From Minutocellus sp. GHC0000111 (taxonomy: Eukaryota): 64,000 nucleotides of DNA. The position numbers and the translations under genes were made by a program. The stretch lies in contig OZ361257.1 in the NCBI GenBank assembly GCA_977018835.1, forward strand, positions 186,001 through 250,000, in the 5' to 3' direction. The first letter of the stretch is position 1. Every line of letters starts with the position of its first letter. This document shows positions 5,700-64,000 of the stretch, in pieces. Under the pieces are notes generated by a model. The model saw only the letters and a list, made by a program, of their open reading frames with translations. It was not told where the DNA came from and searched no databases.

Positions 5700-6340
5700 G
5701 GGATTTTTAGTAGCTGCATGGTAGATCTACTGGTAGATCTACATCATTTTCAAATACCACCACATTTCTTGCATGTACATAGATCTAGATCTAGATAGAC
5801 TATAGATCTATAGATCAATAGATCTACAAAATGTATACAGTCCTGTAGAGTCTAGCACAAATAATATAGGCACAGAGTGCAGATAGAGAGGTTTCCATAC
5901 ATGTAGTTCGTCTAGATCTATGCAACATGTACACATTAAGATCTAGAATCTACGTAAAAACGTTTATCAAATTGTCATCTTGGGGACAAGATCAACAGCA
6001 CATGTACCGGTAGATAGATCTGGAGATCTGGGAGGTCTCTATCTATCTACACAATTTCAACACAACCACCACCAACAACACCAACACCAACACCAACAAC
6101 ACCACCATATGTAGATCTACCGATCCACACATGTACACACATTAGAACTACCTGGGTTTGTTTCAATGGAGGCTTTCACTCTAATAGATCTAGTGGCTTC
6201 ACATGTAGTCCCTCACCACCGCGGTTCACCAAAGATCACCAGTGCCAAGGAGTCAGATCTAGATCTAGATCTACGTAAAACATCAACAGATTTACAGTCC
6301 GAGCTCACCTAGATCTAGATCTACGCACATGTAAGCAATT
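5700..6340. repeat. Low-complexity tract rich in TAGATCTA/TACATGTA modules; includes a GAATCTACGTAAA-type element end at 5946
   Basis: Repeated TAGATCTAGATCTA, TACATGTA and TACCGGTA. TA|GAATCTACGTAAAAACGTTTATCAAATTGTCATCTTG at 5944-5981 is shared with 13226, 45599 and 61810. Confidence 0.8.
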
Positions 6341-6659
6341 AAGACTCTGGCAATAGGTCTTAAAATTGCTCACATTTGCCAACTCCTAACATCGGTTGTC
6401 TGGGCTAAGCACCACGCTTTTGTGTGCCTGACGTGTCAAGTGCTATGGCTAGGTACCGGTAGGTAGATCTCAGGAGATGAGGAGAACGGCAACTCTGGTG
6501 GTGCTATGTCGGTGTTTTGAATTCCAACGAAGCAAGGTTGACATGGACATCAACATTTGTGTGGATGCCACCATTGCATTCTGTTGTTATGTATTTTGTC
6601 CTCTCAACGTGCCTGAAGACAAAACCAACACAGTTTTGATGTGCTATGTTTGCCTTTGA
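6247..6659 (+). repeat. Dispersed repeat containing a CAGTCC-type TIR end at 6295; inverted copy at 18685-19084
   Basis: Nearly identical to the reverse complement of 18685-19084. Both copies give the spurious peptide MRRTATLV...NTVLMCYVCL. Confidence 0.9.
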
Positions 6660-6894
6660 CGATAGTTTGATCCAGTGCAAAGGCCTCTCGGGGCGAATAA
6701 AAATAAAACATATGCAACCATTTCAGAATAAGCTCAGCCCTGGAAAATGCTATGCTTAGCAACAGCCAAAACTTCAGCCCTTGACTCAAGCACACATGCA
6801 TGGATTATATGCATGCTTATATAATGGGGACGGGCTGTGTAACATATTGACTCTAGAAGAAATTTGCATGCATGTACATGTTCAATTGATCTAC

Positions 6895-7057
6895 AGTCCG
6901 TGCCCGGTTATGAGGATGTTTCATATCCTGGCATGGTTCGGCCCAAACAATTCCCTCATTCTAGGGCTCCAAATAAATTGTCGTACTCTGCTGCAAGATT
7001 TGGATGACAATGACACCGCCACGAGGATGGCGTCCCTTCATCGATTCGCCGCATGTG
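6895..7057 (+). repeat. CAGTCCGTG-type MITE end fused to a fragment of the 203-bp repeat unit
   Basis: TA|CAGTCCGTGCCCGGTTATGAGGATGTTTCATATCCTGG resembles the end at 63121. It is followed by CCAAACAATTCCCTCATT...CATCGATTCGCCGCATGTG from the tandem unit. Confidence 0.75.
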
Positions 7058-7231
7058 GACCTGAAACGTCAATTGGGGCACTCCGTATTTTATTTGAATT
7101 GAATTGAAAGATTGGCAGCTGTGGTTAGACTCTGGTTTACTTTTTTACCACAGATAACTCCTGGATTGGCCGCTGTGCTGATCATCCCAGGAACGTTAAT
7201 GTATCGTAGTAAAATGTCATCTAGCATGCAA

Positions 7232-10200: not shown

Positions 10201-11231
10201 ATCCTCTTCGAGAATCACTCGATTCTTGGAGAGCTGCTCTTGGACGAGAATCACCTTTTCCACTCCCTTGATAATAAAGTACCCGCCAGGATCGTAAGGG
10301 CACTCACCCATCGCTGCCAGCTGCCGCTCCGTCTTTCCGGATAACAGACATTTTGACGACCCAAGCATGAGAGGTATTCTACCAACAGGGACCTTCCTCT
10401 TCATCACAATCTGTCGTCCACGAGTATATCGGATGTTGACGTAAATTGGAGCGGAATAAGTGCAATCTCTCAGCCGGCACTGAGACGGTGTTGCCTGAGT
10501 CGAAGCATACGAATCCTCGTCAACCGATGGTTCTCCGACCCAGCAGTCCGTGTAGCGAAGATAAAACTTGGGATCATGTTCACTGCGAATCTCACAGGCA
10601 GACGGAGACTTGGTGGGAAAGAAAAAAAACGTGCGAATTTTTGTGAGCATAAACATAGAGCGAAATGACATGATTGGTGTGCATGCACCTTGCGGTTCGT
10701 CTACAGAAACCACAGCGACAAGCATGATGTGACCTGCTAGCTTGGTGAAAAGCATCGACAAACTCAAATCAAATCAAATTTAACAACAACCCTTACCTGG
10801 ACAATTTGCTTCATCTCAACGTTGACGAAGTAGTCAAAACTATCAATGTGCTGCTTCATCAGGCCTCTTAGCTTGAGAAAGTGAGGCAGCAGCCTCCATT
10901 TGTCCTTGAGCGATCCCACAGGCATGTCAAGAGGCGGAGGAGTGCCCTGGTGCGGCCCTTCTCCTGAGACTTCGCCATTACCTGGAAATCTAGAAGCGAC
11001 AGCGGGATTCGTCGAGAGATGATGTGAGGGTGGTGATGGTGCCTTCTTTCTGTCGATCCTGCTAAGATCCAATGGGCCACAATTTCTCGCTGCAACGCCT
11101 CTGCTGCTTTCACCAGGGAAATTATTGTCAGTTGCACAACTCTTCACATTACTTTCGAACCGATCAATATCTTCAATGAGAGTCGATCCGTGTATCTTCC
11201 CAAAGCCCTCGGTCGGAAATGAAGACTTCAT
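7232..11231 (-). pseudogene. RPC2: RNA polymerase III second-largest subunit (RPC2/POLR3B), disrupted as assembled
   Basis: Motifs: [67 protein letters not shown] and [17 protein letters not shown]. Intron at 10609-10796 (GTAAGG..AAG). In-frame TGA at 8947-8949 (CRPL*ID) and a frameshift at ~7497 in RSRDGGLRLGEM. Conserved GNKRL reads GNMRL. Confidence 0.92.
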
Positions 11232-11339: not shown

Positions 11340-11520
11340 AAAAACTAGCTTACGCAGTACTCTACTACGTACGTACTAGTAGCTACGTAGAAGCTAGCTA
11401 GAGCACCCTACACTGTAGGCACACACGTAGAGTGCTCTACACTGTAGGTACGTAGGCCGTAGGCCTAGCTACGTACGTAGCTAGTACGTAGTACATGTAG
11501 TTTCGAGCCAACCAATTGGT
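11340..11520. repeat. Array of TA-bounded short palindromes upstream of RPC2
   Basis: TACTACGTACGTACTAGTAGCTACGTAG, TACACTGTA x2 and TAGGCCTAGCTACGTACGTAGCTAGTACGTAGTACATGTA. Confidence 0.85.
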
Positions 11521-11753
11521 ACCGGTATATATGTAGGCAGATGCACAGATGCTCCTCCTACATGTATGTAGCGGTTGGCTTTGCTGGTTCTACTTCCTTC
11601 ACTTCTCATCGCCTGATTATGTCGATCTTATAACCAATTGGTACCGGTATATATGTAGGCAGATGCACAGATGCTCCTCCTACATGTATGTAGCGGTTGG
11701 CTTTGCTGGTTCTACTTCCTTCACTTCTCATCGCCTGATTATGTCGATCTTAT
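11510..11753 (+). repeat. Tandem duplication of a 122-bp segment
   Basis: AACCAATTGGTACCGGTATATATG...GTCGATCTTAT occurs at 11510-11631 and again at 11632-11753, identical as far as I can read. Confidence 0.92.
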
Positions 11754-11819
11754 AAACGTCTACCTAGTACATGTAGAGGAGGTGCCAAATTAAGGGGCAG
11801 TTTGATGTTGGTTTTCAGT

Positions 11820-11976
11820 GACTACATGTAGATCTAGATCTAGATCTAGAAAATTGTCATACACATGTAGTAGGTTCCTATGTACATGTAGATCTAGCTA
11901 GAGATCTACCTAGGTAGAGCTAGCTAGAGTCTAGATCTCTAGAGTCTAGATCTAGCTAGCTAGATCTAGATATCTA
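11820..11976. repeat. Dense TAGATCTA/TACATGTA/TAGCTA/TACCTAGGTA module tract
   Basis: Examples: TACATGTAGATCTAGATCTAGATCTAG and TACCTAGGTAGAGCTAGCTAGAGTCTAGATCTCTAGAGTCTAGATCTAGCTAGCTAGATCTAG. Confidence 0.88.
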
Positions 11977-12177
11977 CATCAAGTCTTTGCTCCAAATGTA
12001 ACGGGGGACAGCAACGATGGTGCTTCTGGTCCATTCCAGAATGCCTACAATACTTTCTGTAGAGGAGGTGCCATCCCGCTCGTCATCGGAGCATACGGTG
12101 AAACAAATGAAGACTTTCAAGAGGTACTGAAAGTCTGTGCTTGCATGGCGGTAGCTCGGGGGGTGATGCAGTATATA

Positions 12178-12927
12178 TGTTAGTCCCAAAATGCGCACTG
12201 TCCCAGTTCGCGAACTGGGATCCCAGTTTGCGAACTGAGATTCATTTATCCCAGTTTGCGCACTGGGCCCCAGTTCCCAAACTAGGATCTCAGTTTGCGC
12301 ACTGATACTACCAGAATGGAAACTGAGATAAACACGCCAATCCGAATTTGGGAACCAGGCGAGTTCGCGAACTGGAACAAAAATGAATACCAGTTTGGAA
12401 ACTGGCATTCTCGGCAAGTGTCAGAATGGTAACTGCCGGTGTTGGCTCATGCACAATGATTATGTACTGGTAGATCTATCTACAATACAAGTTGCACTGT
12501 GCATCATATCTTGAATTTGCAAGCTACATGTACTGGTACAGTAGCAACATGATGCCGGCATAGCACAGATGCATGTACAGTTCATGACTTATATTTGCCA
12601 GAAGCAGCTAGCTAGATATTATTATTTATTCACTACATGTATTTAGTATCAGCTAATGCCAATTTATTGAGTATCAGCTCCGGCACTAATGTCGTCTGGA
12701 CGTCTGGACCAGGTTTGGGCTGTGTTGCTTCACTATGAAAAAATGAAGCGAGGAGAAGCAAAGGCGATATCATCCATGCTAAATATTCATTATTTCTCGA
12801 TTGATCCCAGTTTGCAAACTGAGATTGTGCCTATGATCCCAGTTTCCAAACTGGGATAAATGAATCTCAGTTCGCAAACTGGGATCCCAGTTCGCGAACT
12901 GGGACAGTGCGCATTTTGGGACTAACA
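12178..12927. mobile_element. Non-autonomous TIR element (750 bp) with ~80-bp TIRs, TGT...ACA termini and palindromic subterminal repeats
   Basis: TGTTAGTCCCAAAATGCGCACTGTCCCAGTTCGCGAACTGGGATCCCAGTTTGCGAACTGAGATTCATTTATCCCAGTTT at 12178 is the reverse complement of ~12848-12927. TATA flanks both ends. Confidence 0.9.
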
Positions 12928-13225
12928 TATACATACATGTATGTAGATCTATATATGTAGATCCTAGAGTCTACACACACATTAACCTCTTACTTGTGTG
13001 TAGATCTATATTCAAGCGAATTGAATTTGGTTCTAACTTTTCATTATGATACACATGTAGTAGATCTAGAGATCTAGAAAGATTTAGGAATTCCTATTTA
13101 AGATAGAGTCTAGATCTACCTAGCGGGACGACACCCACCACTACCACCAAATGTCCGGTCCCCACTCACCGCTCTTGATGATGCATACATGTAGAGAACT
13201 AGATAGATCTACGTGTATATAAATA

Positions 13226-13455
13226 GAAATCTACGTAAACGTTTATCGAAATGTCATCTTGAGGGCAAGATCGATAGAGTCGAGGTGAATAACTGCAGAA
13301 ACTTCGTCTTTCTTATTCGTAATGATACTCAGGGCCGCTCCTGTAATCTCGGAATTGCTCGTAGTACATGTGTACCCATACCGTACTCTCTACTCGAATG
13401 ACGAGCAGAGAATCCATTTCCCTCAGAACATCGGCCAGCAGTCTCAAAATGGGAC
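13226..13455 (+). mobile_element. Dispersed repeat family with a TA|GAATCTACGTAAACG terminus (probable non-autonomous TIR element)
   Basis: Homologous to the reverse complements of 61595-61810, 37130-37250 and 45530-45599, and to 5946-5995. Confidence 0.8.
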
Positions 13456-13567
13456 TAGATCTAGATCTACATGTATCGGTGCTAGATCTACATTAGATCT
13501 ATCTATGGCATGGTTTTAGAGAGATCTATCGGTACCGGTACATGTACGTGTAGTAGACTTACTTATG

Positions 13568-13774
13568 CAGTCAGTTCTCACCTACATGTAGATCTATAAG
13601 CACAATCCTTGTGCTTAGATCTAGCTGAGGGGTGAGATTTTGGGCATTTTGCTTATTCTAGATCTAAGAGCTAATTGGTACCTACCGGTAATTCGAATGC
13701 AATTCCTTATTCCAAAATAGGCACATCCAGGGCTGGAGCCGAAATCCTTTGTGCTTATAGGTGAGAACTGACTG
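13568..13774. mobile_element. MITE, CAGTC(A/C)GTTCTCACCTATAAGCA TIR family
   Basis: The left TIR at 13568 is interrupted by CATGTAGATCTA. The right TIR GTGCTTATAGGTGAGAACTGACTG|TA ends at 13774. The interior is homologous to 36335-36515 in inverted orientation. Confidence 0.85.
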
Positions 13775-15600: not shown

Positions 15601-15639
15601 TGCAGGTGAATGTGATCGTAATTCCTAAACTACCGGTAG

Positions 15640-15890
15640 TCTAGGACCTAATACGTAAAAACTACTAGCTTGCTCTACGTACGCAGCTTTTCTCGCGAGT
15701 GCCGAGTCGTCGTGTCGACCGCTACGTACTCTACTCTTGCTAGCTACTCTACTACGTAGCTAGCTAGCTAGGCTAGCTACTAGCTAAGAGGTAGTAGTAT
15801 TAGAGTAGAGGTAAGGAAGAGGGCCTTCGACAACTGTCGGTTCCAGTTTCGCCTTAGCTCTAGCTGTCGAGCTAGACTAGCCAGGAGCTA
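15640..15890. repeat. Array of TA-bounded short palindromes upstream of AP-3 delta
   Basis: TACTACGTAGCTAGCTAGCTAGGCTAGCTACTAGCTA and related modules, ending ~20 bp before the ATG at 15907. Confidence 0.8.
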
Positions 15891-17587
15891 TCCTGCTGCT
15901 GACAGGATGAGTAACGCACCAACCATGACTTCCGTTGGTGGCATTTCGGTCAGAAATCTTTGACCGATATTGTCAAGGGCATTCGAGCGACGAAACGTGA
16001 TACTGGTATCTTCATATCTGCTTGTATAGCCGAGATCAAAACTGAGATAAGCTCGACGGATCCGAGGTAAAGGTTACCGCCCTTCAAAAGCTGACATTTC
16101 TTCAGATGATGGGATACGATATGTCGTTCGCATCCTTCGCGACAATCGAGGTGATGTCGAATGTACGCTTCGCGCACAAGAGGGTCGGATACCTTGCAGC
16201 GAGCCAGGGCTTCAGCCAAAACACCGAGGTGGTCCTCCTTACAACGAACCTTTTGAAGGAGGAGCTCCGAGGCGCTGTCGGCGGGGGGATGTCAGGGGTT
16301 TACGAAGCTGGATTGGCTGTCAACTGTCTTTCCAATATTGTGACGGAAGATCTTGCACGGGAGCTCCTTCCAGACCTTTCGAACCTTCTGTCCCACCCAC
16401 AGCAGTACATTCGAAAGAAAGCAGTATTGTGTATGTTCAAGTTGTTTGTCAAGTACCCGCAGGGATTGCGATTGACCTTTTCTCACATCCAGCAGTGTTT
16501 AGAGGATAGCAACCCATCTGTTGTTTCATGCGCTGTTAATGTTATTACCGAACTCTCCGATAAGAACCCGAAGAACTATCTTCCCCTTGCCCCCTCCTTC
16601 TTTAATTTGTTGACATCATCGAGTAACAACTGGATGCTTATCAAGGTAGTGAAACTTCTAGGGTCATTGGTCGCCGAGGAACCTCGCCTTGCCCGGAAAC
16701 TACTAGATCCATTATCCCAGATCGTGAAGACTACACAAGCCAAGTCTCTCCTCTATGAAGCTGTCTATACCATTACGTTGTGCCTTCCGTATTGTCGAAA
16801 AGCAGATGGTTCCATGCCTGCGTCCGTGCCAGAAATTGTTGAGCTGTGCGCGAAGACGCTTCGTTCCTTTGTCGGTGATGCGGACCAAAATCTTAAGTAT
16901 CTTGGCTTGGTGGGATTTGCCGGTCTGATGTCATCCCACCCTAAAGTCTTGTCTGCACCTGATTATCGGCCGTTGATCCTTACATGCCTCTCGGACGATG
17001 ACATTACAATTCGCAGTAGATCACTGGACCTCCTCGGAGGTATGGCAACTCGGAAAAATTTGATTGAACTTGTCAATCAACTGCTAAAGCACGTAGATCA
17101 GGCTGTTGGGTCGTACAAAAACGACCTCGTTGAAAAGATCATCGAGATATGTTCGGCCGAGAAATACGCACACCTGCAAGATTTTTCATGGTACCTTGAT
17201 GTTCTGGTCTATTTTGGCCACACAATGGGGATCGAGCGCAGCGGTCAAATTGTTGCGAGGCAAATTGTTGATGTTACGTTGAGGGTGTTGCCCGTGCGAG
17301 AGCACTCTGTACAAAAAATGATGGAGGTTCTTGACAGAGCTCTTAGGTTGCGGAATCGTTACGGAAGATGAGAAAATGTTCTTGGGGCATCCAGGGAAAA
17401 TCCCGGTAATCTTCACGAGAGTTGTGGCTTTGTCCTTCCGGATGTTTTACTTGCAGCAGCGTGGATTGTCGGGGAATATTCGTCCTTGATTCCTGCTGCC
17501 GTGGGGTCTACAGTGTCGGGATAAATGGATATCCTTATAGATCTAGATGTGCAAGGACTGTACATGTAATGGAAAGGTATATGTAGA

Positions 17588-18492
17588 TCTAGCTAGATGT
17601 TTATATTCACATGAGACGTACCTACAAGGTGTAAATAGGAACTTCTGTATGTACGGTATAAAAGCACGGACTACAAGAAGAATCACTTTTCTTCCAATGA
17701 TCAGAGCTTGCTTGCAATGAGTGAATTGTTTGGCGAGAACGATGGTATGTACGGGTCCCATCATTCGCAGGATGATAGTTGTACCATTGGAGAACACAAT
17801 CATATGCGGCGAATCGATGGGGACACCCGACGACGAGCATGATCATTTCTACCAAGAAGGCGGTGTCATCGTCGTCCAAATCTTGCAGCAGAGTACAACA
17901 ATTTATTTGGAGCCCTGGAATGAGTGAATTGTTTGGCGAGAACGATGGTATGTACGGGTCCCATCTTTCGCAGGATGATAGTTGTACCATTGGAGAACAC
18001 AATCACATGCGGCGAATCGATGGGGACACCCGACGACGAGCATGATAATTTCTGCAAGAAGGAGGTGTCATCGTCGTCCAAATCTTGCAGCAGAGTGCAA
18101 CAATTTACTTGGAGCCCTGGAATGAGTGAATTGTTTGGCGAGAACGATGGTATGTACGGGTCCCATCATTCGCAGGATGATAGTTGTACCATTGGAGAAC
18201 ACAATCACATGCGGCGAATCGATGGGGACACCCGACGACGAGCATGATAATTTCTGCCAAGAAGGCGGTGTCATCGTCGTCCAAATCTTGCAGCAGAGTA
18301 CAACAATTTATTTGGAGCCCTGGAATGAGAGAATTGTTTGGCGAGAACGATGGTATGTACGGGTCCCATCTTTTGCAGGATGATAGTTGTACCATTAGAG
18401 AACACAATCACATGCGGCGAATCGATGGGGACACCCGACGACGAGCATGATAATTTCTTCTTGGCAGTATCATCGTCGTCCAAATCTTGCAG
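17588..18492 (-). repeat. 203-bp tandem array (~3.8 units) plus tail, inside AP3D1
   Basis: Reverse complement of the unit and tail seen at 20-2117. Confidence 0.95.
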
Positions 18493-18684
18493 AGGAATAC
18501 GACGTTGGGATGCAGGCTTCATGGAAGTGAGCACGAGAGTACCACAGCTGCTTTTTAGCAATGATTATGTTCGTGGCTTTAAGCCTCTTAAGACAATTGC
18601 GCATCCGCACACCGATAGCCTTCGGAGAATTGCCAGAGCGGCGCTGGCAGCAGGAGAACAGACAATTGCACCGTTCGAGGCAGC

Positions 18685-19084
18685 TCAAAGGCAAACATAG
18701 CACATCAAAACTGTGTTGGTTTTGTCTTCAGGCACGTTGAGAGGACAAAATACATAACAATAGAATGCAATGGTGGCACCCACACAAATGTTGATGTCCA
18801 TGTCAACCTTGCTTCGTTGGGATTCAAAACACCGACATAGATCTACATGTAGCATCACCAGAGTTGCCGTTCTCCTCATTTCCTGAGATCTACCTACCGG
18901 TACCTAGGCATGGCACTTGACACATCAAGCACACAAAGCATAAGGCTTAGCCCAGACAACCGATGTTAGGAGTTGGCAAATGTGAGCAATTTTAAGACCT
19001 ATTGCCAGAGTCTTACTTGGTTATGTAGATCTAGGTGAGCATGGACTGTAAATCTATTGACATTTTATGTAGATCTGGCTCCTT
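18685..19084 (-). repeat. Inverted copy of the 6247-6659 repeat
   Basis: Direct sequence comparison. It differs by substitutions and by TA-module insertions. Confidence 0.9.
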
Positions 19085-20041
19085 TCCATTGAAATAACTC
19101 TGTGCCAACATGTGTGTGTACTAGACTAGATTTACAATACATGTGCATGCTGTCTCTGCATCGTCATTGCAGCTCAAAAGTGACTCAGGACCACTATTCG
19201 AAGATGACAGTCCACTGAAAGTTACTGAGACTAGGTCTAACGATCCCTTTTATCTAGATGTAGATGCAAATTCGGGAAGTTCTACTGGTGCTACTCTGGT
19301 TCATCAATCAGGTAAGTTTGGATCTATTCAGCTAACTGACAGCAATGAAGAATCCGGAACGCGAAGAAAGAAGAAAAGGGAAAGAAAGAGAAAAGAAAAG
19401 AAGAAAAGAAATTCGTCGATCCTTCCACAGTCGGGAGTACTCGGATCTACCTCGGAGTTTTCGCAAGCTGCTATGGGAAAGTGTACTGGACAACATTTCA
19501 CAGTTTATAGGAGCGACGACGACGACGATGAGGAGGAGGAGGAGAGAATGTTGACAAAGATGCCAGGCGACAAGGAATTTGAGGGTCTCCGTAAAATTGA
19601 TCTTTCAGCTGCTACCGCCACAGTCGAAGAGGAGAAAGAAGTCTCACCAACTCCTGTACTGCCAAACGATTTCCCAGAAAGAATTGATGCTGCAAAAGTT
19701 AAAAAAACAGGTAAAAAGAAAGGGGGCGACAGAGAGAAGTCGAAGAAGAAGAAGAAGAAACCCAAAAAGAAATCGAAGGACCACAGACTCAATTATGGTG
19801 ACACGATGGATTTATTGGACCTCGGCGGAGGCCCTTAGTAAGTAAGGTTTTAGGATTATGGTTTTTCAAATCCAGCTACGTATTCAGCTACGTATTATAG
19901 TAGATAATATTCAGCTACGTAGTAGATAAGAATGCCATTTTTTCCTAGTACACTTATGCACATGATTGCGAAATGGTGTTACATGTAATTTTTAATTGAT
20001 GACCGTCCTGCGTGCAGCATGATGTGCTTTTGCAGCTCTCA

Positions 20042-26822: not shown

Positions 26823-27059
26823 TGTGCTGCCCGACCCAGTGGATCCACGAACTTTTACGAAAGAAGCAACGAGCGTGCGCGTTCCTCGGCCACAGCGGGC
26901 GTTTTCTAGCGAAGTCAACTTGAGCCAGGTGGTATTATTTGTTTTGGGGTGGGAAATGAAGTACGGTACACGGCAGTTTCAGGACATGGAATCTTCCGCA
27001 TCCTTTCAGCTCTGTGTTCCATGAAGAAAGCATGATGACGTGCCACATTTTCCGCAGTA

Positions 27060-27368: not shown

Positions 27369-27374
27369 TGGTCC

Positions 27375-29379: not shown

Positions 29380-29463
29380 GAAGTAGGGGCTGGTTTTAAA
29401 AAATATGTCTTCTATGAGTTATTATGCCAAATGTGAGATAAAAGGACAGACCGGCTCACTTCT

Positions 29464-48330: not shown

Positions 48331-48654
48331 GGGATGCTGGGATGACATCATGCTCGTCGTTATATCGAATTATCATTTTGAAGAGATAGGAACAATAGGT
48401 TCTACTTATGGTTCGCCATTCTGATTTGTAGTGATTGTCTAGAGTGTTCTTAGCTTCGTTTTAGGCTGGCGATAGATCTACATAACATGTAATTGTCGAA
48501 AATACCGATAACAAGGAGATTCTCGTGATGTCCGAGTCGTCAGCTTTCATCAGCATTTGGCTCTCACTCAAAAACTTTTTAAAAAACGGTACCGAGCAAG
48601 CTCGCAGCCCGGATCTTCTTGAATCTACAAGGTCGAAATGCAAAAAAGAAGGAA

Positions 48655-50545: not shown

Positions 50546-53500
50546 CTAGCTCATGGCGCAGGAGAAAAACAGAGGAAAACCGGGTGTTTTGGTCGAGTGC
50601 GAAAAAGCTCCTCTGACGAACGTCTCTCATTCGCAACAACTCCAAAAGAATTTGCCGCCATAAAATCAACATCAGCTCTTTGATAAGAATCGTCTCGAGC
50701 GAGTATTTTTTAATATTACTGCTGCACCAAAATCCACGTATTGCAACAATAGACCGAGCGCATCATAACAGAGAAAAAACTGCCGAAGAAATCGCCGCAG
50801 CATATCTTTTGATCTCGCCAAACATTGATGACACCCTCGTTGGGCACTTTCATCGTCCTATTGCTCTTATTGACATCCTTCACAAGCACTGGCGCTTCCC
50901 GAACTCTCTCCGTTTCTAGCACTTTCATCCTTGACTTGAACGAAAAAACAGCAAAAGAAAGAAGCTCGCTCGTTGGGGAGAAAAGGAGGAACGAGAACCC
51001 CACCGACTGGTGGGTGTCACCGTCGGTCGTAATTGTGCGCGGATTTGCGCTACCGACACTTGCATTCATGCCCAGACCTCCGTACACCGAGCAAGGTTCC
51101 TGTCGATGGAATCAATATCATTACGGCGGGAACAATGAAGATATGTGTATAGCCTGCAAACTCCATTCAGCAATGGGCGATACGACGCTCAGAACGAAGG
51201 TGAAGGATGGAACAGAAAAAATTATTTGTGTCTGCATGTGTATGCGTCATGATATGCCAGAGGATCAGTGGGAGGAACAGCACAGCATGCGAATTGAATA
51301 TGCCAATCAAGAAGAGGAAGAGCAAAAGAATTCACGATCCGATCGGGCGGTGGCGAAGCGCTACGTCCCCGGCGAATCTGAGACGGCAGCGGCCGATTCT
51401 ATCACAGAGGTTCGCAATTGGACGACGAGGCATTTGCGAAGTGCCAATTCCGAGATGACCGATCGAGCAGCCATCGCCCATCTTGCAAGGAAGGGTGGTC
51501 ACAACGGTGCTATCAACATCAGTAGAGGTGGAACCTCTCGTCGGTCTCGACAGAAGATGGCGGATACGGCAAGTGCAGCTTTTGCAGGGCTCAGTAAGGC
51601 TGTATCGCCGACCGACCCTGAATTTGGAATGGCGGTTGCTATTGCTGGCAATGTCGTTCGAAAGGGTACAGTGAAGAGATCGTTGGAAAGTACAGTGGTC
51701 GATTCCGAGAAGAGGGTTCGGCCAACTGCGCAGCACCGAGAAGAAATGGCAAATGCAACTGCTACAAAGGAGGTTGCTTTGCGCATAGCTGCAGATGCAG
51801 CGAAGCTTGCGAAGAATCAGAAGCAGAAGCAGAAGGACGATGCTCTGCTGCTGGAGATGGGACCGGTCCTCCGTGACCACGTAAAGAAGATAAGGAAGCC
51901 CAGCCTCCGGAGGCATTTTATTGCTGCTTTCTGCAAAAAGTACAGCCAATCATGCATTGAGAGGGTGGTGGGCATCAAGATACCTAGCGACGAGTGGAAT
52001 AACATCAGGAAACATCAGCGGAGCCCCGGCGCATTCAAAATTCTAACCAGATCGAAGCCAATAATAAGCAGAGCAAGGATCCCAGAGAGTATCATCAAGA
52101 AGTTGCTGTATTTATTGGAGCAGCCGATGAATCTGCAGAAGCATGCTTTTGGGTCGAAGCTACTTGCCATATGTGATGGCATGAAGTCGGTTGAACTCGC
52201 GGCAGTGGCACGAGCCAAGCCAATGCTGGACCTCGTCAAATCATTCATAATGGCACTAGATTCTGAAGCGGGCTGTAAGTGCACCGTCCCCGACGAAGAT
52301 CGTTGTACCAAGCTCGAGGACAACACTATGCGCCGATGCATGAAGACGGCTGGCCACGGCGGCAAGCATAAGTACACGACCAAGGGATCTATTTGTGCGC
52401 GAACGGTCGAGGATTTGGTTGGAACATTGACAACAGATGAGATTCGAAGGTTTACTGGACTTGACGATATCAAAATTTTGAAGGGGAACGATAATTTCAA
52501 ACGCATGAGGGAGTTGACGGAGAAACTGTTCTTTGCTCTTGACAACGAGACCCAGCTCGAGAAGGCCGAGATCCTGATGAATATCGACGAGGTCGAGCTC
52601 TTTCATTCGACAGACTTTTGTCCCCACCTCGACCGAAACGGTACCCACAAATGCAATTGTTTGACTTGTGGATTTGAGCAAGATGGATCTGATATTCATT
52701 GCGACCACAAGGAGGATCATCTCAACCCTTGTACGAATTGTGCTCTCGGCTATTCGATTGTTCGGCGCCTCGAGGCGAAGCTTGAAGCTGTGAAGGGGGC
52801 ACTATTTCCAACCGATAGGGATCGTTTTGAGTATGAGGAGGCCAAGGATCCCATCATCAACTGTAGAATTGACTTGGACGAATACCGAAGCCATTTGGCC
52901 CGTCTTTGGAGCGAAGCTGGAGAGGATGTGCCGGATTTGAATCATCTCTGGGAGGTCAATGGATGCATGGTGCGTTGTGACTACAAGATGAGAATACTGG
53001 CTTGCTACTTTCGGGAGAATCAGCTCAAGTGGTACGCAAAGCGCGGGATCACATGCCTTAGCTTTATGATTATATCTAAAGCTAAGGATGGCGATCCGGA
53101 TCGGCGCTTTGACTGCACTTATGTAATTTTTCTTACAAACGACACTCTGCAAGACGAATGGGAGGTATTGTGCGCAAAGAAGGAGGTCTATGAGAATCAT
53201 GTACCGCCCGATTGCAAGGTTGTTTGGTTTCGGACTGATGGAGCAGGCTGCTTTCGTAACGTCCTCGCCCGTGCAGCTCAAAGGATGTGGTCTAAATGGA
53301 CGGTCCGTGGAATTGTAGAGGAGAGGTATCGAATAGATCCTGCCGGCGGCGGCCACACTACTCTTGATGCTATGTTTGGCGTTCTTGCGAGAGTTTTGCA
53401 TAGAGGTGCTGACCGAGGCAACTCCTACGTGTTCGTAGATGAAGCAGTAGTTGCAGCCGAGTCTGGAGGAGGGATGGCAGCTACGACCTTTGCATCTTTC

Positions 53501-54512
53501 AATCCAGATCGAACCCGTCGTCTTTGGGCCAAGCTCACTGCTCCCAACAAGTCTCTTGACAGCGTCCTTCTTACCGTTCTGAACAAAGAGAATGGATCTA
53601 TTGTCGGCTACAAGCACTCTGGATACGGGCAGGGAGTGCAGTACAAGGCATCCAACTTCTCTTGGTACAACAAGCAGCCGATAATGACGGGTAGGAATAA
53701 AACCAACCCCATCGATGTCGAATCGGCCCAGCCTCCACGATGCCTCGACCTCAAGTATGGATCCGACGAGAAGAAAGCAATCAAAAGCTACGCCGAAACC
53801 GAAGGACAAGGGCCTCAATCCGCCAATAACATTCGCAAGCGCATGATACCAGCAGATCTCGTCGTTCCCAACCATCCTGATAACGCCGATGCCGCTGCAG
53901 ATCCTGAACAGCAAGGCATCGATCTGCATGAGGATCCAATGAATGAATCTGATGGAGAAGCATCCGACAACGAAGATTGAAAATTGTTTGGCTGGATGAA
54001 TGCACACATCTTGTGTAGCTATACATAGTTAGAGCATCTTAGAGTAAGACATGTGCTTTAGTACGATATCTACTTTGTAGATCTACACGTCTGGCTACAT
54101 AGTCTTGTGTGTGTTCCTTGTTTTATCGGTCTAATAGTTGGCATCAGCCAATTCATTGTCGACGAGGACCAGCAGTCCCTTGCTTTCTCGCGTTAAGATA
54201 TTTTTTTTAAAGCTCGCAAGAAAGCAACACTTCTGCGTGCATTTCTTTGCGAGGTCAAAAATGTTTTAAAAACTATTTTTGGCAAAATCCAAAGTAGAGA
54301 TCGAGCGGAAGATACCGAAAACATGATGTGCAGTTTTCGACGCAGAATTCAAAAGTGTACCAATCTTTGCCTCGAGGAAGGGGACACATCAGCTTGTATC
54401 GAGCGATGAAGTTTGGTGCAGTTTTGAATCCTCGTGCCGACGCAGGGCTACTTTGACGGGCGTGCTGTTTTGACCGGAAAATGCTCTGTTTTTCTCGTGC
54501 GTCATCAGCTAG
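50546..54512 (+). mobile_element. TIR DNA transposon, Sola3-like (tentative), ~3.97 kb
   Basis: Left end TACTAGCTCATGGCGCAGGAGAAAAACAGAG versus reverse complement of the right end TACTAGCTGATGACGCACGAGAAAAACAGAG (3 mismatches). The TSD is TA or CTAG, ambiguous because the junction is palindromic. Confidence 0.85.
50825..53980 (+). CDS. Putative DDD transposase (Sola3-like) with Cys/His-rich region; uninterrupted ORF
   Basis: CDYKMRILACYFRENQLKWYAKRGI, FRTDGAGCF and PAGGGHTTLDAMFG resemble the DWAMK..YRESQ..WFGKRG / SDNAGCY / GKG..D pattern I associate with Sola3. It lies between TIRs. The true start may be MPRPPY at ~51068. Confidence 0.65.
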   Translation: MMTPSLGTFIVLLLLLTSFTSTGASRTLSVSSTFILDLNEKTAKERSSLVGEKRRNENPTDWWVSPSVVIVRGFALPTLAFMPRPPYTEQGSCRWNQYHYGGNNEDMCIACKLHSAMGDTTLRTKVKDGTEKIICVCMCMRHDMPEDQWEEQHSMRIEYANQEEEEQKNSRSDRAVAKRYVPGESETAAADSITEVRNWTTRHLRSANSEMTDRAAIAHLARKGGHNGAINISRGGTSRRSRQKMADTASAAFAGLSKAVSPTDPEFGMAVAIAGNVVRKGTVKRSLESTVVDSEKRVRPTAQHREEMANATATKEVALRIAADAAKLAKNQKQKQKDDALLLEMGPVLRDHVKKIRKPSLRRHFIAAFCKKYSQSCIERVVGIKIPSDEWNNIRKHQRSPGAFKILTRSKPIISRARIPESIIKKLLYLLEQPMNLQKHAFGSKLLAICDGMKSVELAAVARAKPMLDLVKSFIMALDSEAGCKCTVPDEDRCTKLEDNTMRRCMKTAGHGGKHKYTTKGSICARTVEDLVGTLTTDEIRRFTGLDDIKILKGNDNFKRMRELTEKLFFALDNETQLEKAEILMNIDEVELFHSTDFCPHLDRNGTHKCNCLTCGFEQDGSDIHCDHKEDHLNPCTNCALGYSIVRRLEAKLEAVKGALFPTDRDRFEYEEAKDPIINCRIDLDEYRSHLARLWSEAGEDVPDLNHLWEVNGCMVRCDYKMRILACYFRENQLKWYAKRGITCLSFMIISKAKDGDPDRRFDCTYVIFLTNDTLQDEWEVLCAKKEVYENHVPPDCKVVWFRTDGAGCFRNVLARAAQRMWSKWTVRGIVEERYRIDPAGGGHTTLDAMFGVLARVLHRGADRGNSYVFVDEAVVAAESGGGMAATTFASFNPDRTRRLWAKLTAPNKSLDSVLLTVLNKENGSIVGYKHSGYGQGVQYKASNFSWYNKQPIMTGRNKTNPIDVESAQPPRCLDLKYGSDEKKAIKSYAETEGQGPQSANNIRKRMIPADLVVPNHPDNADAAADPEQQGIDLHEDPMNESDGEASDNED

Positions 54513-54595
54513 TACGTACTGTACGACTTACCAGTAGAATTTTCTACATGTAGGCTAGGTCCTAGACTAGGTAGGCCTACATTGTAGTAGCTCAT
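54513..54595. repeat. TA-palindrome array upstream of SEC15
   Basis: TACGTACTGTACG...TACATGTAGGCTAGGTCCTAGACTAGGTAGGCCTACATTGTAGTAGCT. Confidence 0.75.
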
Positions 54596-54677
54596 GTCGG
54601 AATGAGGAACGTTTCAACATAGAAGTGATTTGACCATAATTGCTGGCCAGCTCTGCACCACGTATAGATTTCTGGCC

Positions 54678-57600
54678 ATGACGGCGCAGAGCAGCAATGA
54701 GAAAACGGTAAAAGCTCAGAGTCAGATCGAAAGAGCGCAGCGTCGAAGAGAGGATGCTGTGCGTCGTTTAGTGATCGATGTGACCAGATTGCCCTCCACG
54801 CACCCAGCGGCAAATGCTGCGAGTGACATTCTCAAGCCTAGTCTTGATGAAACCAGTAACTGCAATGGAACAATTCACCCACTCCTTGAAAACAGTAGGG
54901 CTGGCGATGTTCCAACTGCATCACAAGCGTCAGTTTCTGGAATCGGTGCATTTACCAAACTGCCAGAAGATTCTCTCTTGACGAGCGCCGTGGCCGTCTC
55001 AATTGAACGTGGTGTTGATCGTGAACTTCACAACGAGTTGGTCCGCCAGGCCAGGGAATCTGCTGGTGTAATATCAAAGATTTGTCACGACCACTCAGAT
55101 GCTTTCCTTGGGAGTGTCGGAAGAGTTGTAGCACTAGGTGGCCCCTGTGGCGAGCTTCGTGGGAAAATTGAGGAGGTACGTGCGGGAGGCGAGGATGAAG
55201 TCTTTAGCGACTTCATTTTCGTTCATGTCTGGACAAAAACTATACTTTTCACTGTTACTCATCTGCTACCTCAAAAATTGTCATCAATTCTACTAGGCGA
55301 ACAAGGAAATTCTTTCTAATACTGGCGGTGCTATGCTCGACTCAGCATCTCGTTTGGAGGCATCGAGAAACGCGGATGCAAGAGCACGAACAATGCACGG
55401 GATGGTCACCGCATGCCGCCGGGTTGCTGTCCTGTTAGAGAGAAGCCGACGTCAGGCAGCGTTGAGCAGGCCAAAAGCCAGTTTAGATGCGGTTGACGAG
55501 GCTCGGACATGCTTGACCGCTCCTATCAGTAGTCTACCTAGGTACTCTTTGTGCCAGGAGGTCTTGATAATTTGGTCAACGTAGCTGCATACAACACAAT
55601 CCTGGCCAGAGAGGCGGCGCGGAGTAGGGGCAGTTTCGGCAACACGGATAGTGCTCTCAACCATGGTTCTGGGCCAGACAGAATTGACGCCGCAAGCATT
55701 GGAGCGAAAGGCGAAGACGGAGGAAACAGGATTGGCGATGTTGGAGGTTTCATTGGCGGTCCTCATGGACCTTCTCCTTCAGAGCTTTGTCTCGAGGAGA
55801 CTCCGTTCGGGTCGCGGGCTATGGAAATGCTACCAAAAATAGAAAACGAAGTCCTTCTGGGTGCACGGAGAGGTCTGAATCGTTGGTTCCTCTCAATACG
55901 GTCAGGAGGGGATGGATCCAAGGCAGGAAGGGCTGCTCTCCGTAGGTGTGCTCATTCTATGGCAGTGGGCCCCGGCCTGTTGGGTTTGGGCGGTCGCATT
56001 CAAAGTTACAGCTGGAGAGCAAAAAACGCGGACAATCTCATTTCTCGGGCGGGGCAGGGAGGCAGGGTTGCAAGGGCAGCTCGTTACGGATATTTGTTCG
56101 AACGGGACTGTAAAAAAGAAGTAGAACGAATCGAAGGAAGAAGCGTTGTTGGTGTAGAACGTCGAGCCGAGGCGTTTGTGTCAGCCTTCGGTTGGTATCG
56201 CTGTTGGGATGAGAGTGTTGAACTTGATGTTGAAATTGATCTTTTCCTTGCCCGAGCTGGTGAAAACGACTCGGAGACACCAGGAGGAACAAGCCACGGC
56301 ACAAAGACTCTTGGATTTCGGGCGGGGGCTGCTGCAGGGCAAGCCAGCTCTAGGGATCTTCTTGGGCGTCAGTCGACACGGCTAACGTCATCCAGTTGGG
56401 GGAGTGTTCTGACCCCTTCAATTTTCTTTGAGGACTCTCCCACGAGGTAATGAAAAATCGTCTATTTGGCTAACGAAATGAGGTATTTGATGTTTTTGGT
56501 TTGGCACGCATTGTTTGCCGTTGCACTAACTTGGTTCCTTGCTTTACACTGTCTTTGCTTTTTGGGTCAGAGAGGAAGACGAAGAAAAACTTGTTTCTTT
56601 GCCTGAGGCGGTGCACCCAGTTCGCAGGGCAGAGGCCGCGTTTGCCTTATTGGGGAGGATTGACGAGTTTCGGTCGTATTATGAGCAAAATCGTTTCGGT
56701 GACATGAGAATTGGTTCAGCTGAGAGCAAGAGTGATGGCGAGGGTGATAAGAATGAAGTGAGGAGTTATCTTTCTTCTCTCACAGGAGATGATGTAAGTC
56801 TCGGCACTGACCGAATCTTCTTTGCGAAGAGCATGCCTCACCTATGTGCAAGTGTGGTTGGGTTCAGTGCTGTAGAGGCAGCGCTTGAGCTCGGGAATGT
56901 CAGTGACGAGCCAGATCAGGAGAACACGGACTCTTTCACCGCTAGGTCTCAGACTGAAGGTCCCAGTGGAGAAAAGGACTCGTCTGAGAATGAGCTTGTC
57001 AACCAACCCACCCCTCCTGCGAGCAGTGCCTCTGCATCGTTTCGCGAAGGCTCAGCTAGGTATGAGCGCTCCTTGATCAACGAACTTGGAATCATCCTAC
57101 GGAGCCGTGCAATTGGAGCGACATTGGCTGAGCTTGCCCGCAGCTCGGCATTGATGACCTCCTTCCGATCGGCTCTAAACGTTGTCCATCCTAGTTCAGC
57201 CACACGCCGCTCCGACAAGGAGTTGCTTGCCATGGATGTGGATATCATAATGACTGGCCTTAAGGTGGCACAAGAAGAGCAGCTGAAAGCCACCAACAAG
57301 ATGGTGTGTGATGACAAGAAAGAAGCCATGAGGGTCCCAAGTGGTCAAGAATTTCGAACTGCTGATCAACAGCCGTCCAGGGAGGAAGCCGAGGTAAAGA
57401 ACTATCCCTTCGGTCTTCACAAGTTGAAGCAGAAGCCATTGGTAGATGCTTCTCTGGAGATCGACCGAGGCAGTTTGCACTACATGCATGCTGCGCAGGA
57501 AGAGAGATTCACATTTTCAAGCTCTGTTCCATTTGTGGTTCGATCCATCCATGCTCGGACCATCACGTTCGCCTTCTTTGCAATGTGCCAGGAAGAGCTT

Positions 57601-58727: not shown

Positions 58728-58965
58728 AGGGTTGGGAGAAGAAACTCCCAAGACAACATATGAGGGAAAATGCGGACATCCAGATTTTGACTGATCACTA
58801 AGGCCTAAGAAAATCACGACACAGAGGAGGTCAAGGCAGGATTCCGAAGATGGTTCAAATTTTACAAAAAAGGAGAAGCAGTAGTCTGCCTCGTGGTGGG
58901 AACAAGGGATCTGTTAAAAATGCACTTAATTACTAAAATCTTAATGCTCAACAATGATCTTCGAT

Positions 58966-59963
58966 GCATGTGATTGTGTTCTCCAATGGTACAACTATCA
59001 TCCTGCAGAAGATAAGACCCCAACATACCATCGGTCTCGCCAAACAATTCACTCATTGGACGACGATGACACCGCCTTTTTACCAAAGTTATCATTTTAC
59101 CAAAATTATCGTGCTCATCGTCGGGTGTCCCCATCGATTCGCCGCATGTGATTGTGATCTCCAATGGTACAACTATCATCCTGCAAAAGATGGGACCCGT
59201 ACATGCCATCGTTCTCGCCAAACAATTCCCTTATTCCAGGGCTCCAAAGAAATTGTCGTACTCTGCTGCAAGATTTGGACGACGATGACACCGCCTTCTT
59301 GCAGAAATTATCATGCTCGTCGTCGGGTGTCCCCATCGATTCACCGCATGTGATTGTGATCTCCAATGGTACAACTGTCATCCTGCGAAAGATGGGACCC
59401 GTACATACCATCGTTCTCGCCAAACAATTCTCTCATTCCAGGGCTCCAAATAAATTGTTGTACTCTGCTGCAAGATTTGGACGACGATGACACCGCCTTC
59501 TTGGCAGAAATTATCATGCTCATCGTCGGGTGTCCCCATCGATTCACCGCATGTGATTATTGTGATCTCCAATGGTACAACTATCATCCTGCGAAAGATG
59601 GGACCCGTACATGCCATCGTTCTCGCCAAACAATTCCCTCATTCCAGGGCTCCAAATAAATTGTTGTCCTCTGCTGCAAGATTTGGACGACGATGACACT
59701 GCCTTCTTGCAGAAATTATCATGCTCGTCGTCGGGTGTCCCCATCGATTCGCCGCATGTGATTGTGATCTCCAATGGTACAACTGTCATCCTGCGAAAGA
59801 TGGGACCCGTACATACCATCGTTCTCGCCAAACAATTCCCTCATTGCAAGCTCTGATCATTGGAAGAAAAGTGAAGTTTCTTTGTAGTCCGTGCTTGTAC
59901 TCTTACGTACAGAAGTTCCTATTTACATGTTTTAGGTACGTTTCTTGTGAACATACACATCTT
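58966..59963 (+). repeat. 203-bp tandem array (~4.5 units, first one deleted internally) plus tail
   Basis: Same unit and tail as 20-2117. Confidence 0.95.
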
Positions 59964-61129: not shown

Positions 61130-61594
61130 AGTTGATTGAGAGAAAACTAGATCTAGATCTTTCATGAGATTAACTTGGACTGGAATCCCCACTGGCACGG
61201 TAGATCTAGATCTGGTACCGGTCAGACTCATTCATCTCCATATTTTGTAGATCCAGATATCTAGAGATCTAGAAATGTGTTGCCACATTGACCCCCCCAC
61301 CCAAGATGATCTTCATCAAGATCTTTTTTGTTGAAGTAAGTCTACATCTATTGGCTGACGACGCGGAGCATCAGAAAACAAAAGGAATTCGACTTTGCTG
61401 CGGAACCAGGCACCGTACAAGACTTGCAATGTGGCGAGGGTACCGTAGGTCTAGATCTATCTAAAACAGCTTTTGAAGGCGCGTGCTAGCTATCTCTTTA
61501 TGGTCTTGCATAGAGATAATTTTATAACATAGAGAGTCTACACATGTCTCCAATGATCGATGCTTCTCAGAGTTACTCTAGCTGAATCTAGATC

Positions 61595-61810
61595 TACATT
61601 TTGAGACTGGCCGATGTTCAGAGGGAAATGGATTCTTTGCTCGTCATTCGAGTAGATCTACGAGCAATTCCGAGGTTAGATCTATATATACAGGAGCGGC
61701 CCTGAGCATCATTACGAATAAGAAAGACGAAGTTTCTGCTGCAGTGAATCACCTTGACTCTATCGATCTTGCCCTCAAGATGACATTTCGATAAACGTTT
61801 ACGTAGATTC
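61595..61810 (-). mobile_element. Copy of the GAATCTACGTAAACG-ended repeat family
   Basis: Reverse complement of 13226-13455. It ends CGTTTACGTAGATTC|TA. Confidence 0.82.
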
Positions 61811-63120
61811 TAGAGATCTATTTATCCATGTAGATCTAGATCTAGAGATCTACAGGACTGTATTTTAGATCTAGAGTAAATGTCATGTTATCTAGTGTTG
61901 GGCAACTAAAGCGAATTGCAGAAGCCTCGCTTCTTGAGGAGGATGAAGCTCAGGTAATGGCTACAGTCCGTCCCCACCTATAAGCATATTTGATCCGGAC
62001 CCCAGCCCTCAACATGCTTACATGTACCCAGCCCTCAACATGCTTACATGTACCGTAGCGACTGCAATAATTTTAGCCAGGGGCTAAGCACATGCCTCTG
62101 TTGAATGATGACGTGGCAAATGCTGGACCAGCAAGGGCCGGAAAACGAACACCAGCACTACCACCAGCACTACCACCAGCACCAGCACCAGCACCAGCAC
62201 CAACGCAATATTCTACCGGCCTCACAGCCACAATTCGCATGTATGTAACTACGTGTAGCGACAATGCAAGAGCCTACAGTTAATTTCACCTACAAATCAC
62301 CCGCTCCTTCGGTCGGACGTCCTCAGGCAACTGAGCTTGGATGTTAGGCGGCGGTGTGCCGGACTTGGCGAAAGCAGGAACGGAACTCCAGTGTCCCGGC
62401 AACGGTCCGCAGTACGAGGGTACGATGACAGGGTACCACCACACATATTAGGCGAAGCTTCTTGGCTGGCGCGGAGGCCTTTGTGCGACCTCACATGTAG
62501 ATTGATTCCAAAAATAAGGTTAACCATAGAATACCTAGGTAGAACAAAATAGAATAGAATGTAGAACTACCGGTACAACGCGTTGTACATAGCCACTGAC
62601 CCTCGTCAGTTACGTCCCTTTACTTACATGTACCCTAATGTACGTCGCGGAGGGTGTTGGGTCTGCGGATTTACAGGCCTGGATGGTAGATCTAGAAGCT
62701 CGTGATGTTGAAAGGTGGGGAGCAAGGGTGGAGGATACGTTGGGCCTCGAACGAGGTTCTTCCAAGTCACTCTATCATGCGCAAAACAATTTTTGGTTGA
62801 TTATTTTATTGTAGGAGGGTATCGCATAAGAGTGTGTCGTCTAAAGTGAGCAGATCTTGGCGAGCTACTAGAGTACGTAGGATTTCGGCGATACATGTGA
62901 TCTCCGGGTTCCCAACTTCCTCAGCTACATGTACCCCCCTAAAAGCCACAGGGTTATATCGATCGAAAGACATACAGCCCGGAACTTCTAGATCTATCTA
63001 GAAGTGCATTGAAAGGTAGGCTAGCTTTCCCGAGGTCTGGTTGGCCTCTACCCCGATCTCAGCCTACCGGCAGAACGATTATTTTATTAGATCTATCGTT
63101 TCATGGGAGGTTAGAGTCTA

Positions 63121-63606
63121 CAGTCCGTGCACGCCTATATAAGGATATTTCATATCCTGGTTTGAGACCTCATAGTTTTGCCCGTGATAAGGATAATTAG
63201 ACCTCGGCTTTGGCAGCATCCTTATTTTTCTCGCATGACAGGCCCTCAGAAGAGGCTACAACCTCCAAGACTTTGGTGGGGAGGATGCCTCCTATCTTTT
63301 CCAGGAGGATTATGAGAAGCTTCTTAATCGATCTAATGGTGACGACGAGGTTTCTCTTGAGGTTGGGCTAAAGTCTTGGTGCCTCGTGAAGCTTGGATAG
63401 ACTATTGGCGGTTTTGGAGAGGTTTGCACGTTGCTAAAGCTTTGTTATTCCTCTCCTTACACGTTATTTCGCTACAGCTGTGTGTGGTGTTGCCACGTCA
63501 TTGCTAAATAAGGATATCCTTTGGTGAGAACTCAGATTTCGCCTCCTGATAAGGATTTTGAGACCTCAGGTCTCAAAGCAATATCCTTATAGGCGTGCAC
63601 GGACTA
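63121..63606. mobile_element. MITE (486 bp) with CAGTCCGTGCACGCCTATAAGGATAT TIRs and TA TSD
   Basis: TA|CAGTCCGTGCACGCCTATATAAGGATATT ... ATATCCTTATAGGCGTGCACGGACTA|TA. Internal inverted TGATAAGGAT/ATCCTTAT and GAGACCT motifs. Confidence 0.88.
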
Positions 63607-64000
63607 TAGACGTACATTCGGGTATTTGTATATATATTACCCTACATGTACCGCGATAAATCTTTACACCTCTGAGAAACTTTGGATAGGGAAACTCAGG
63701 CCAACTGGAGAAACGAAGCCTCAGAATGAATTTACTTCATTCTGTTGGCTACCAATTCAGTTTGTTAGCAAACTGTAGGGCGGGATCTAGACATAGACAC
63801 TTTTGTAACAATACATGTAGTATATTATAACACCACCACCATGTAGGCGAGGAATTGCTGCTGCTGCTGTCGCGGAGGGTTTCAGCAGGCTACAGTGGAA
63901 GACCGCCATGTAGTGTATGGACACCGCCTCTAGGAGGCCACGAAGCCACCTCAACCGGAAAGCCACACGGCTAGACGGAACCTGTGGGAGATACGGAATA

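Follow-up and report, generated by a model that had tools for sequence, protein, structure and literature searches.

The non-coding DNA of a 64,000-nucleotide stretch of Minutocellus sp. GHC0000111 (contig OZ361257.1, positions 186,001 to 250,000; hereafter the window) carries short palindromic words framed by TA dinucleotides. These words are probably excision scars made by fill-in end joining, accumulated and nested, of several families of TA-targeting transposons. Excision was not observed as such, and we infer the cause of the words from the insertions, the element ends and the nesting that can be read in the DNA.

The proposed mechanism is as follows. An element would insert at a TA and duplicate it. 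Its excision would leave two terminal bases per flank as overhangs, and fill-in followed by blunt ligation would give TA-xy-y'x'-TA (i.e., the 2+2 product, with 3+2, 3+3 and 1+1 variants). The alga is single-celled, with no separation of soma and germ line, thus scars of non-homologous end joining (NHEJ) would be inherited: those arising in dividing cells would be kept where six extra bases are tolerated and purged from exons. Each scar would add a TA, and the CT-AG and CCT-AGG scars an inner TA, so that later events could land within them and produce a bracket-like nesting. The new TA would be hit about as readily as the other TAs of the non-coding DNA and would not form a hot spot. Some pure (TAGATC)n runs were probably extended later by slippage.

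The counts cover the window, 25 metagenome loci picked for having the end of the CAG-family miniature inverted-repeat transposable element (MITE), and contigs of five public runs (X1, X5, X2, X15 and X14). The latter are Illumina-type assembled contigs, and one of the runs is possibly the window's own source. The window is intron-bearing eukaryotic DNA with genes for an RNA polymerase subunit, adaptin, 1,3-beta-glucan synthase and a Psb27-like protein; we take some N-termini of its proteins to be of a plastid-targeting type, as would fit a diatom. Borders set by eye give 30,083 coding and 14,684 non-coding bases. Expected word counts were obtained from a second-order Markov model of the whole window.

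TA-framed words and insertions at TA

TAGATCTA (67 occurrences for 1.0 expected), TACATGTA (42 for 1.6) and TACCGGTA (20 for 0.6) rank first to third in frequency among all 256 palindromic 8-mers of the window; they are 25-65 fold over expectation. The other counts are 8 for 0.5 expected (TAGGCCTA), 44 for 11.3 (TACGTA), 38 for 10.0 (TAGCTA), 8 for 0.3 on both strands (TAGACTCTA) and 4 for 0.4 (TACACTGTA). The enrichment of TA-palindromes reported by the first-pass annotation, which had been made from the letters alone, is thus found again, and most of the words it listed are in excess; however, two of them, TACTAGTA (4) and TACCTAGGTA (3), are rare in intact form. A TA-xy-rc(xy)-TA word can take 16 forms, of which 8 are missing from the window and 2 are present once; the vocabulary is therefore specific and does not reflect a general preference for palindromes. 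Mixed (chimeric) halves are not enriched in the window (TACATCTA, 4 for 2.6 expected).

Taken together, TAGATCTA, TACATGTA and TACCGGTA occur 124 times in the non-coding bases and never in the coding ones. Exact words are at least as numerous as words with one mismatch (65:36, 41:39 and 18:12), which suggests that many modules are young. Strict 4-base modules occupy 786 of the non-coding bases (5.4%), with a density of about nine per kb of intergenic DNA, and the broad set of scar-like spacers 14.4%, vs. 4.5% in simulations. The excess is about one tenth of the non-coding DNA and not all of it, so that the earlier description of intergenic DNA as built from, or packed with, modules goes too far. 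The chains previously reported at 11820-11976, 13455-13560 and 45615-45760 are present in the sequence. Since 104 of the 116 module chains are single modules and neighbours are mixed in 7 of 15 cases, a microsatellite origin was rejected. A direct tandem duplication of about 129 bp at 11505-11760, without any substitution, contains CCGG and CATG modules.

Indels were counted from the pairwise alignment of 17 repeat or locus pairs. Seven of the ten six-base indels are exactly CATG+TA, GATC+TA or CCGG+TA placed after a TA, vs. 4.7% of random removals in the same regions. For the twelve-base indels, two of seven are exactly CATG+TA+GATC+TA (1.0% of random removals) and two further ones are TA-anchored composites. 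In the MITE alignment, 2 of the 13 rows with homology at the site contain one CATG+TA insert, and other inserts are seen in one row out of six; a CC/GC/GG insert is found in one of four copies of a repeat flanking the satellite. Modules are derived gains in these multi-copy alignments, inserted at a pre-existing TA with duplication of the TA, as had been supposed at first. The copies concerned are the following (here and below, the strand is given where one was assigned):

6295-6659, plus strand: CAG-family copy with GATC modules at the internal TATA of its terminal inverted repeat (TIR), empty where the 18685-19081 copy has CATG+TA+GATC+TA.
18685-19048, minus strand: another copy of the CAG-family element found at 6295, in which two modules (12 bases) are inserted at a TA.
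13568-13774: CAG..CTG MITE with four inserts relative to the 36335 copy, i.e., CATG+GATC at the TIR TATA, GATC twice, and CCGG.
13181-13466, plus strand: dispersed repeat copy with a GAA motif; what distinguishes this copy from that at 61586-61863 is a set of inserts placed at TAs.
2047-2062: nested scar CC/GC/GG of 12 bases, in the single repeat copy mentioned above.

The internal TATA of the CAG-family TIR offers a series of states. For 11 window ends, 5 are empty, 2 have an extra TA and 4 carry GATC or CATG+GATC; it must be noted that two of these four belong to one subfamily. In metagenome locus L003, an element with a GAG end sits in the TATA of a CAG-MITE TIR. The empty, filled and scarred states are thus seen across paralogous TIR copies, the filled one at a single contig-end junction, and the series is a lead rather than a proof. 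A copying of the flanks of the hairpin type was rejected, as the inserts do not mirror the flanks.

The same insertions could be explained by templated insertion, i.e., by seed words copied through repair synthesis primed by TA microhomology, with replication slippage, most modules having never been transposon sites. Templated inserts are known from polymerase-theta repair (excerpted text of PMC4490562) and several of the TA-anchored indels are also tandem duplications. Pure (TAGATC)n runs, GATC-GATC neighbours (7 for 3.7 expected, as slippage would yield) and the duplicated-dinucleotide variants TAGAGATCTA (8 in the window) and TACACATGTA (5) go in the same direction. However, the great majority of chains are single modules, the inserts are whole modules with both TAs and not arbitrary nearby text, and those at the TIR TATA sites do not copy their flanks. 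Templated insertion also leaves without account the match to element ends and the C-before-G order described below; it is considered unlikely.

The comparison data being assembled contigs, an assembly or polishing artefact was also envisaged. Contigs of other runs reproduce several of the tracts almost exactly: over 26600-35270, run X5 departs from the window by 4 letters and 1 gap; over 39226-41013, X1 departs from it by 1 letter and no gap; over 40014-41013, X2 departs from it by 5 letters and 1 gap. The words are also present in most of the 25 metagenome loci, which were assembled separately, and they are absent from exons. For these reasons an artefact is extremely unlikely, and the tracts described in the first-pass annotation are real on this point.

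Candidate elements and their ends

A TIR scan of the window yields TA-flanked elements with CCT, CAG, CTG, CTA and TAT ends. They match the scars CCGG, CATG, CTAG and TATA and, via the GGA end found in metagenome locus L024, GGCC. For CA, CC, CT, TA and GG, the inner bases of the scar equal both ends of one TA-flanked element, in agreement with the correspondence between inner bases and TIR ends noticed at first. The elements are:

2154-5600, minus strand: DD39D mariner-type element with CCT..AGG ends (TIR 17/20), flanked by TA at either end; CCGG and CCT-AGG scars may come from it.
5388-5450: 63-bp TA-flanked inverted repeat with CTG..CAG ends, from the TIR scan.
35254-35784: TA-flanked element with CTG..CAG ends (18/20), from the TIR scan; candidate maker of CT-AG scars.
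36335-36515: CAG..CTG MITE lying between two TAs, from which CATG and CAGTG scars may derive.
12176-12929: TA-flanked MITE with TAT..ATA ends and an 83-bp TIR; candidate maker of TATATATA.
50546-54512, plus strand: TA-flanked 3,967-bp element with CTA..TAG ends and an open reading frame (ORF) of 1,055 codons, between two gene-start tracts; candidate CT-AG maker.
63121-63606: CAG-family MITE whose left end adjoins a GAGTC module.
35342-35636: multi-copy element of about 295 bp (depth in the runs), with left end TA/GGG and right end clipped; candidate maker of GATC, GAGTC and GGCC scars.

In a related genome, L024 carries at 98-1422 a 1,325-bp TA-flanked GGA..TCC element, candidate maker of TAGGCCTA.

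The DDD triad, the TIRs and the TA duplication are all present in the 2154-5600 element, with 39 residues from the second D to the third; this D..D spacing was measured, and we take the family to be DD39D. Its transposase is broken over two ORFs (3576-4388 and 2472-3575), the triad lying in two frames. Homologues of this transposase give a weak PF01498 match, under the curated cut-off. The cluster of the protein at 90% identity has 275 members, and 7 of 22 close relatives examined have a complete triad in one protein. The sole named homologue is from Nitzschia inconspicua, and no relative of the protein was found among viral contigs.

The large ORF of the 50546-54512 element resembles a transposase but matches no Pfam family, the Tc1/mariner transposase domains included, thus some of the makers may fall outside that superfamily. 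It has 20 unnamed homologues, about 40% identical, several of them with a SAP domain, and near-identical copies of it exist on other long contigs. Its motifs may be Sola-like. As the flanks are palindromic, a TA duplication and a 4-base duplication are indistinguishable for this element. A search of prokaryote genomes gave one match (L028, 1-1229), on a contig of 1.2 kb that had been binned with archaeal DNA in a metagenome; it is rich in modules, with a CAG MITE and seven TA modules, and is likely an algal carry-over.

The maker of GATC, the commonest scar, is more likely a GAG-ended element than the GAA..TTC family initially put forward. The GAA..TTC motif is not a terminus: it is internal to a longer repeat, and the consensus in three runs extends past it (loose ends at 37238). 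The TIR scan found no TA-flanked GAA..TTC element with its own ends in the window, and the single GAA pair (36731-37326) sits within longer arms. GAG ends are favoured by the asymmetric words of the window (TAGAGTCTA 8 vs. TAGAATCTA 3) and by TAGAGTA (15 for 5.9 expected). The GAG-starting element of L003 and the right-hand part of the 35342-35636 element share 28 bases of homologous sequence. A search of the window for the G(A/G)G end pattern gave 5 matches vs. 4.8 by chance, thus no second copy is present in the window. Among viral contigs, 2 matches to a 20-base chain and 4 to the GAG end were found, none of them in module-rich DNA; they were deemed chance. The idea that CG/CG and GC/GC neighbours are the halves of 3+3 scars was rejected, as like neighbours are not in excess (mixed 9, GC-GC 6, CG-CG 2) and show no order.

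Fixed words could also be written by a TA-specific enzyme, or by an abortive transposase reaction, without a full cycle of insertion and excision. The fact that scars far outnumber elements, that GATC, CG and GC have no firm maker and that the 2+2 products are very uniform would be in line with this. On the other hand, the vocabulary tracks element ends for five of the six 4-base words, the GAG-ended element sits in a scar-bearing site, and the known Tc1 chemistry already yields such a product. Such direct writing is very unlikely.

Nesting order and gene-start tracts

A CT-AG scar holds a new inner TA, therefore a repeated hit at this site puts a C spacer before a G spacer. In the window, C precedes G in all 7 runs holding both (matched 12 vs. 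1; 0 of 5000 permutations); the same order is found in 9 of 12 runs of the metagenome loci (P=0.03), and CC precedes GG in 4 of 4. The control pairs A/T and CG/GC show no order. In L004, C/CCGG/CCGG/G lies in a TIR TATA that is plain TATA in other copies. An inverted symmetry alone would not pick C..G over G..C.

Nesting thus supports the earlier proposal that new TAs are reused, but self-reinforcement at the same spots holds weakly. The adjacency of strict modules is 15 vs. 15.5 +/- 3.4 after shuffling, i.e., without hot-spot clustering. Of 35 MITE ends, 7 lie directly beside a strict module, vs. 11.9% of the non-coding TAs of the window (P=0.18); this proportion is above the 3.4% obtained with all TAs of the loci, exons included. 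Reuse is not preferential, therefore the feedback is linear, each event adding one more ordinary target.

Two kinds of tract can be distinguished, where a single kind had been described. Seven tracts near gene starts, chosen by eye, hold 172 spacers (C or G 32, CG 25, GC 21, GGCC 6 and GATC 0). The 1021 spacers of the other non-coding DNA include 65 GATC and 38 CATG (P=7e-5 for the GATC contrast). In the 300 bp upstream of nine start codons, short-spacer tracts are strong in 4 cases, weak in 3-4 and missing in 1. The two vocabularies may arise because the families that insert in the open chromatin of promoters are not the same as elsewhere, or because selection sorts the scars near gene starts. 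The tracts are:

11340-11500: gene-start tract with C or G, CG, GC and GGCC spacers, 100-260 bp upstream of the gene for the RNA polymerase second-largest subunit.
15620-15880: gene-start tract upstream of the adaptin gene.
27040-27370: the longest of the gene-start tracts, where three C spacers open and three G spacers close the nest; run X5 has this tract too.
39440-39520: gene-start tract, longer by about 32 letters over 39437-39529 in runs X15 and X14, as estimated from distances to contig ends.
50400-50480: gene-start tract with CCGG/C/CG/G nesting, from the spacer analysis.
54500-54600: gene-start tract, from the spacer analysis.
5770-5850: GATC/CATG-rich tract, read from the sequence.
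11820-11976: chained GATC/CATG/GC tract, read from the sequence.
45615-45760: chained CATG/GATC/CCGG tract, read from the sequence.

The location of the short-spacer tracts (0-300 bp upstream of gene starts) may suggest that the words are transcription-factor or chromatin signals, made by point mutation and selection as proposed for TACATGTA in Phytophthora. According to the excerpted texts, TACATGTA is bound by PsMyb37 (PMC11134190), and the promoters of P. infestans have TACATGTA and TACCGGTA among their motifs. Nevertheless, the words arrive as whole insertions, also within MITEs and TIRs, and GATC, the commonest word, is missing from the gene-start tracts. The 39437-39529 tract moreover differs by about 32 letters between lineages; judging from the distances to contig ends, X15 and X14 have no extra letters in the 30 bases beside it. 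An origin of the words as such signals is highly improbable. Selection may act on the scars later, which is compatible with their origin by excision.

Several observations weigh against excision scars as the origin of the words. (i) Taking all lengths and pairs, TA-anchored indels are 17 of the 56 clean indels of 2 or more bases, thus ordinary indels still outnumber scars in the older pairs. In the 39200-41020 region of run X5, the two indels among the matches listed, of 13 and 17 letters, do not have the form of TA scars, and the comparison of strain contigs gave, among the matches listed, mostly rows of high-copy repeats or indels that are not scars. (ii) The empty, filled and scarred trio was found across paralogous TIR copies and not as alleles of one locus. 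L004 and L011, like L010 and L012, possibly represent one material assembled twice, in which repeats collapsed, therefore their differences were handled as copy variants and not as alleles. (iii) The GAG-ended maker of GATC is supported by the one contig-end junction TA/GAG of L003, the window copy starting with GGG and having no other end. No specific maker was identified for the 82 CG and GC spacer words, which show no pairing, and scars outnumber extant elements by about ten to one. (iv) Twelve introns (1,535 bases, borders by eye) contain 1 module where about 14 would be found at the intergenic rate, and neutral accumulation leaves these module-poor introns without account. (v) A promoter base skew could contribute to the C-before-G order, but the nested scar of L004 lies within a TIR TATA. 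The excess of GATC-GATC neighbours given above is what slippage would produce. Introns nearly free of modules, although non-coding, are found for example at 10610-10800 and 55175-55296.

Other features of the window were recorded in passing. A 5'-truncated LINE-like (long interspersed nuclear element) sequence at 41015-45342 has an ORF of 1,397 codons, a weak zf-RVT match and a 12-base target duplication. Its insertion is polymorphic, since X1, X5 and X2 join across it (skipping 4,316 letters) and X15 and X14 run into the far flank. Arrays of a tandem repeat of about 180 bp are located at 1-2000, 17690-18500, 47615-48340 and 58965-59850, with a part at 6935-7075; each ends in a common flank of about 120 bp and resembles a mobile element carrying a satellite. 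A satellite array and pieces of the CAG family seem to break the adaptin gene (16046-19840) near 17520-19190, and the first long ORF of the gene stops at 17371; it is either a damaged allele or an assembly error.

Known footprints and significance

A single excision footprint at TA is long known. The word taCATGta is the Tc1 footprint of Caenorhabditis elegans (PMC3520976), credited to Eide and Anderson 1988 in the excerpted texts of PMC3520976 and PMC13148408. According to the latter, the +4 scar represents 78% of somatic Tc1 footprints and is NHEJ-dependent, while the germ line restores the element. Excision of Tc1 gives non-complementary 2-nt 3' overhangs (excerpted text of PMC4490562). The window thus shares with the Tc1 footprint the word itself and its structure, i.e., a duplicated TA round two terminal bases per end; NHEJ produces the Tc1 footprint and would likely have produced the words of the window. 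The Tc1 scars differ in that they come from a single family, are somatic and non-inherited, and were seen at reporter loci; those of the window are read as inherited, nested, of at least five end types and with about nine strict modules per kb.

In Phytophthora, TACATGTA lies upstream of 12,070 genes; it is identified as the Tc1 footprint in the excerpted text of PMC3520976, where a footprint origin is rejected because of its abundance. TACATGTA and TACCGGTA are given as promoter motifs in that of PMC3597505, and PsMyb37, the protein binding TACATGTA in that of PMC11134190, is a MYB protein. In these excerpts TACATGTA (motif-1/M93/AM-20) and TACCGGTA (M94), two of the three top words of the window, are abundant in the non-coding DNA of another stramenopile and are read as transcription-factor sites; in the window they are insertions at TA.

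For rice, the excerpted text of PMC4423477 reads excision sites from the comparison of related genomes, as done here. It reports 8 clean excisions out of 94, and in these excerpts the excisions, mostly messy, are not said to build motifs or tracts; this contrast with the clean scars and high scar-to-element ratio of the window is a further difficulty for an origin by excision.

DD39D mariner-like elements and their MITEs share with the 2154-5600 element the D..D spacing of 39, the TA duplication and short TIRs; the latter has CCT ends and accounts for one scar word only. A full-text search of open-access papers and preprints found no account of genome-scale, nested scars of several families, in diatoms or elsewhere. 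New here are (i) the test of nesting by bracket order, (ii) the empty, filled and scarred TIR series with its GAG-ended candidate, and (iii) the difference of vocabulary between gene starts and repeat zones.

A bolder proposal, which is possible but rather doubtful, is that scars write promoter DNA. CT-, C- and G-ended elements inserting in open chromatin would have built the nested C/G-CG-GC tracts at the starts of most genes of this lineage; a TA-targeting family with GAG ends, unlike those described for Tc1/mariner, would make the commonest scar; and TACATGTA and TACCGGTA would be scars adopted later by transcription factors.

If the words are scars, over-represented non-coding words need no binding protein, which calls for caution in motif-discovery work in diatoms, and the origin of TACATGTA and TACCGGTA in oomycete promoters would be reopened. 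The scars would be a countable record of the families that were active, with their order given by nesting, and neutral scars would supply ready-made palindromic sites near gene starts.

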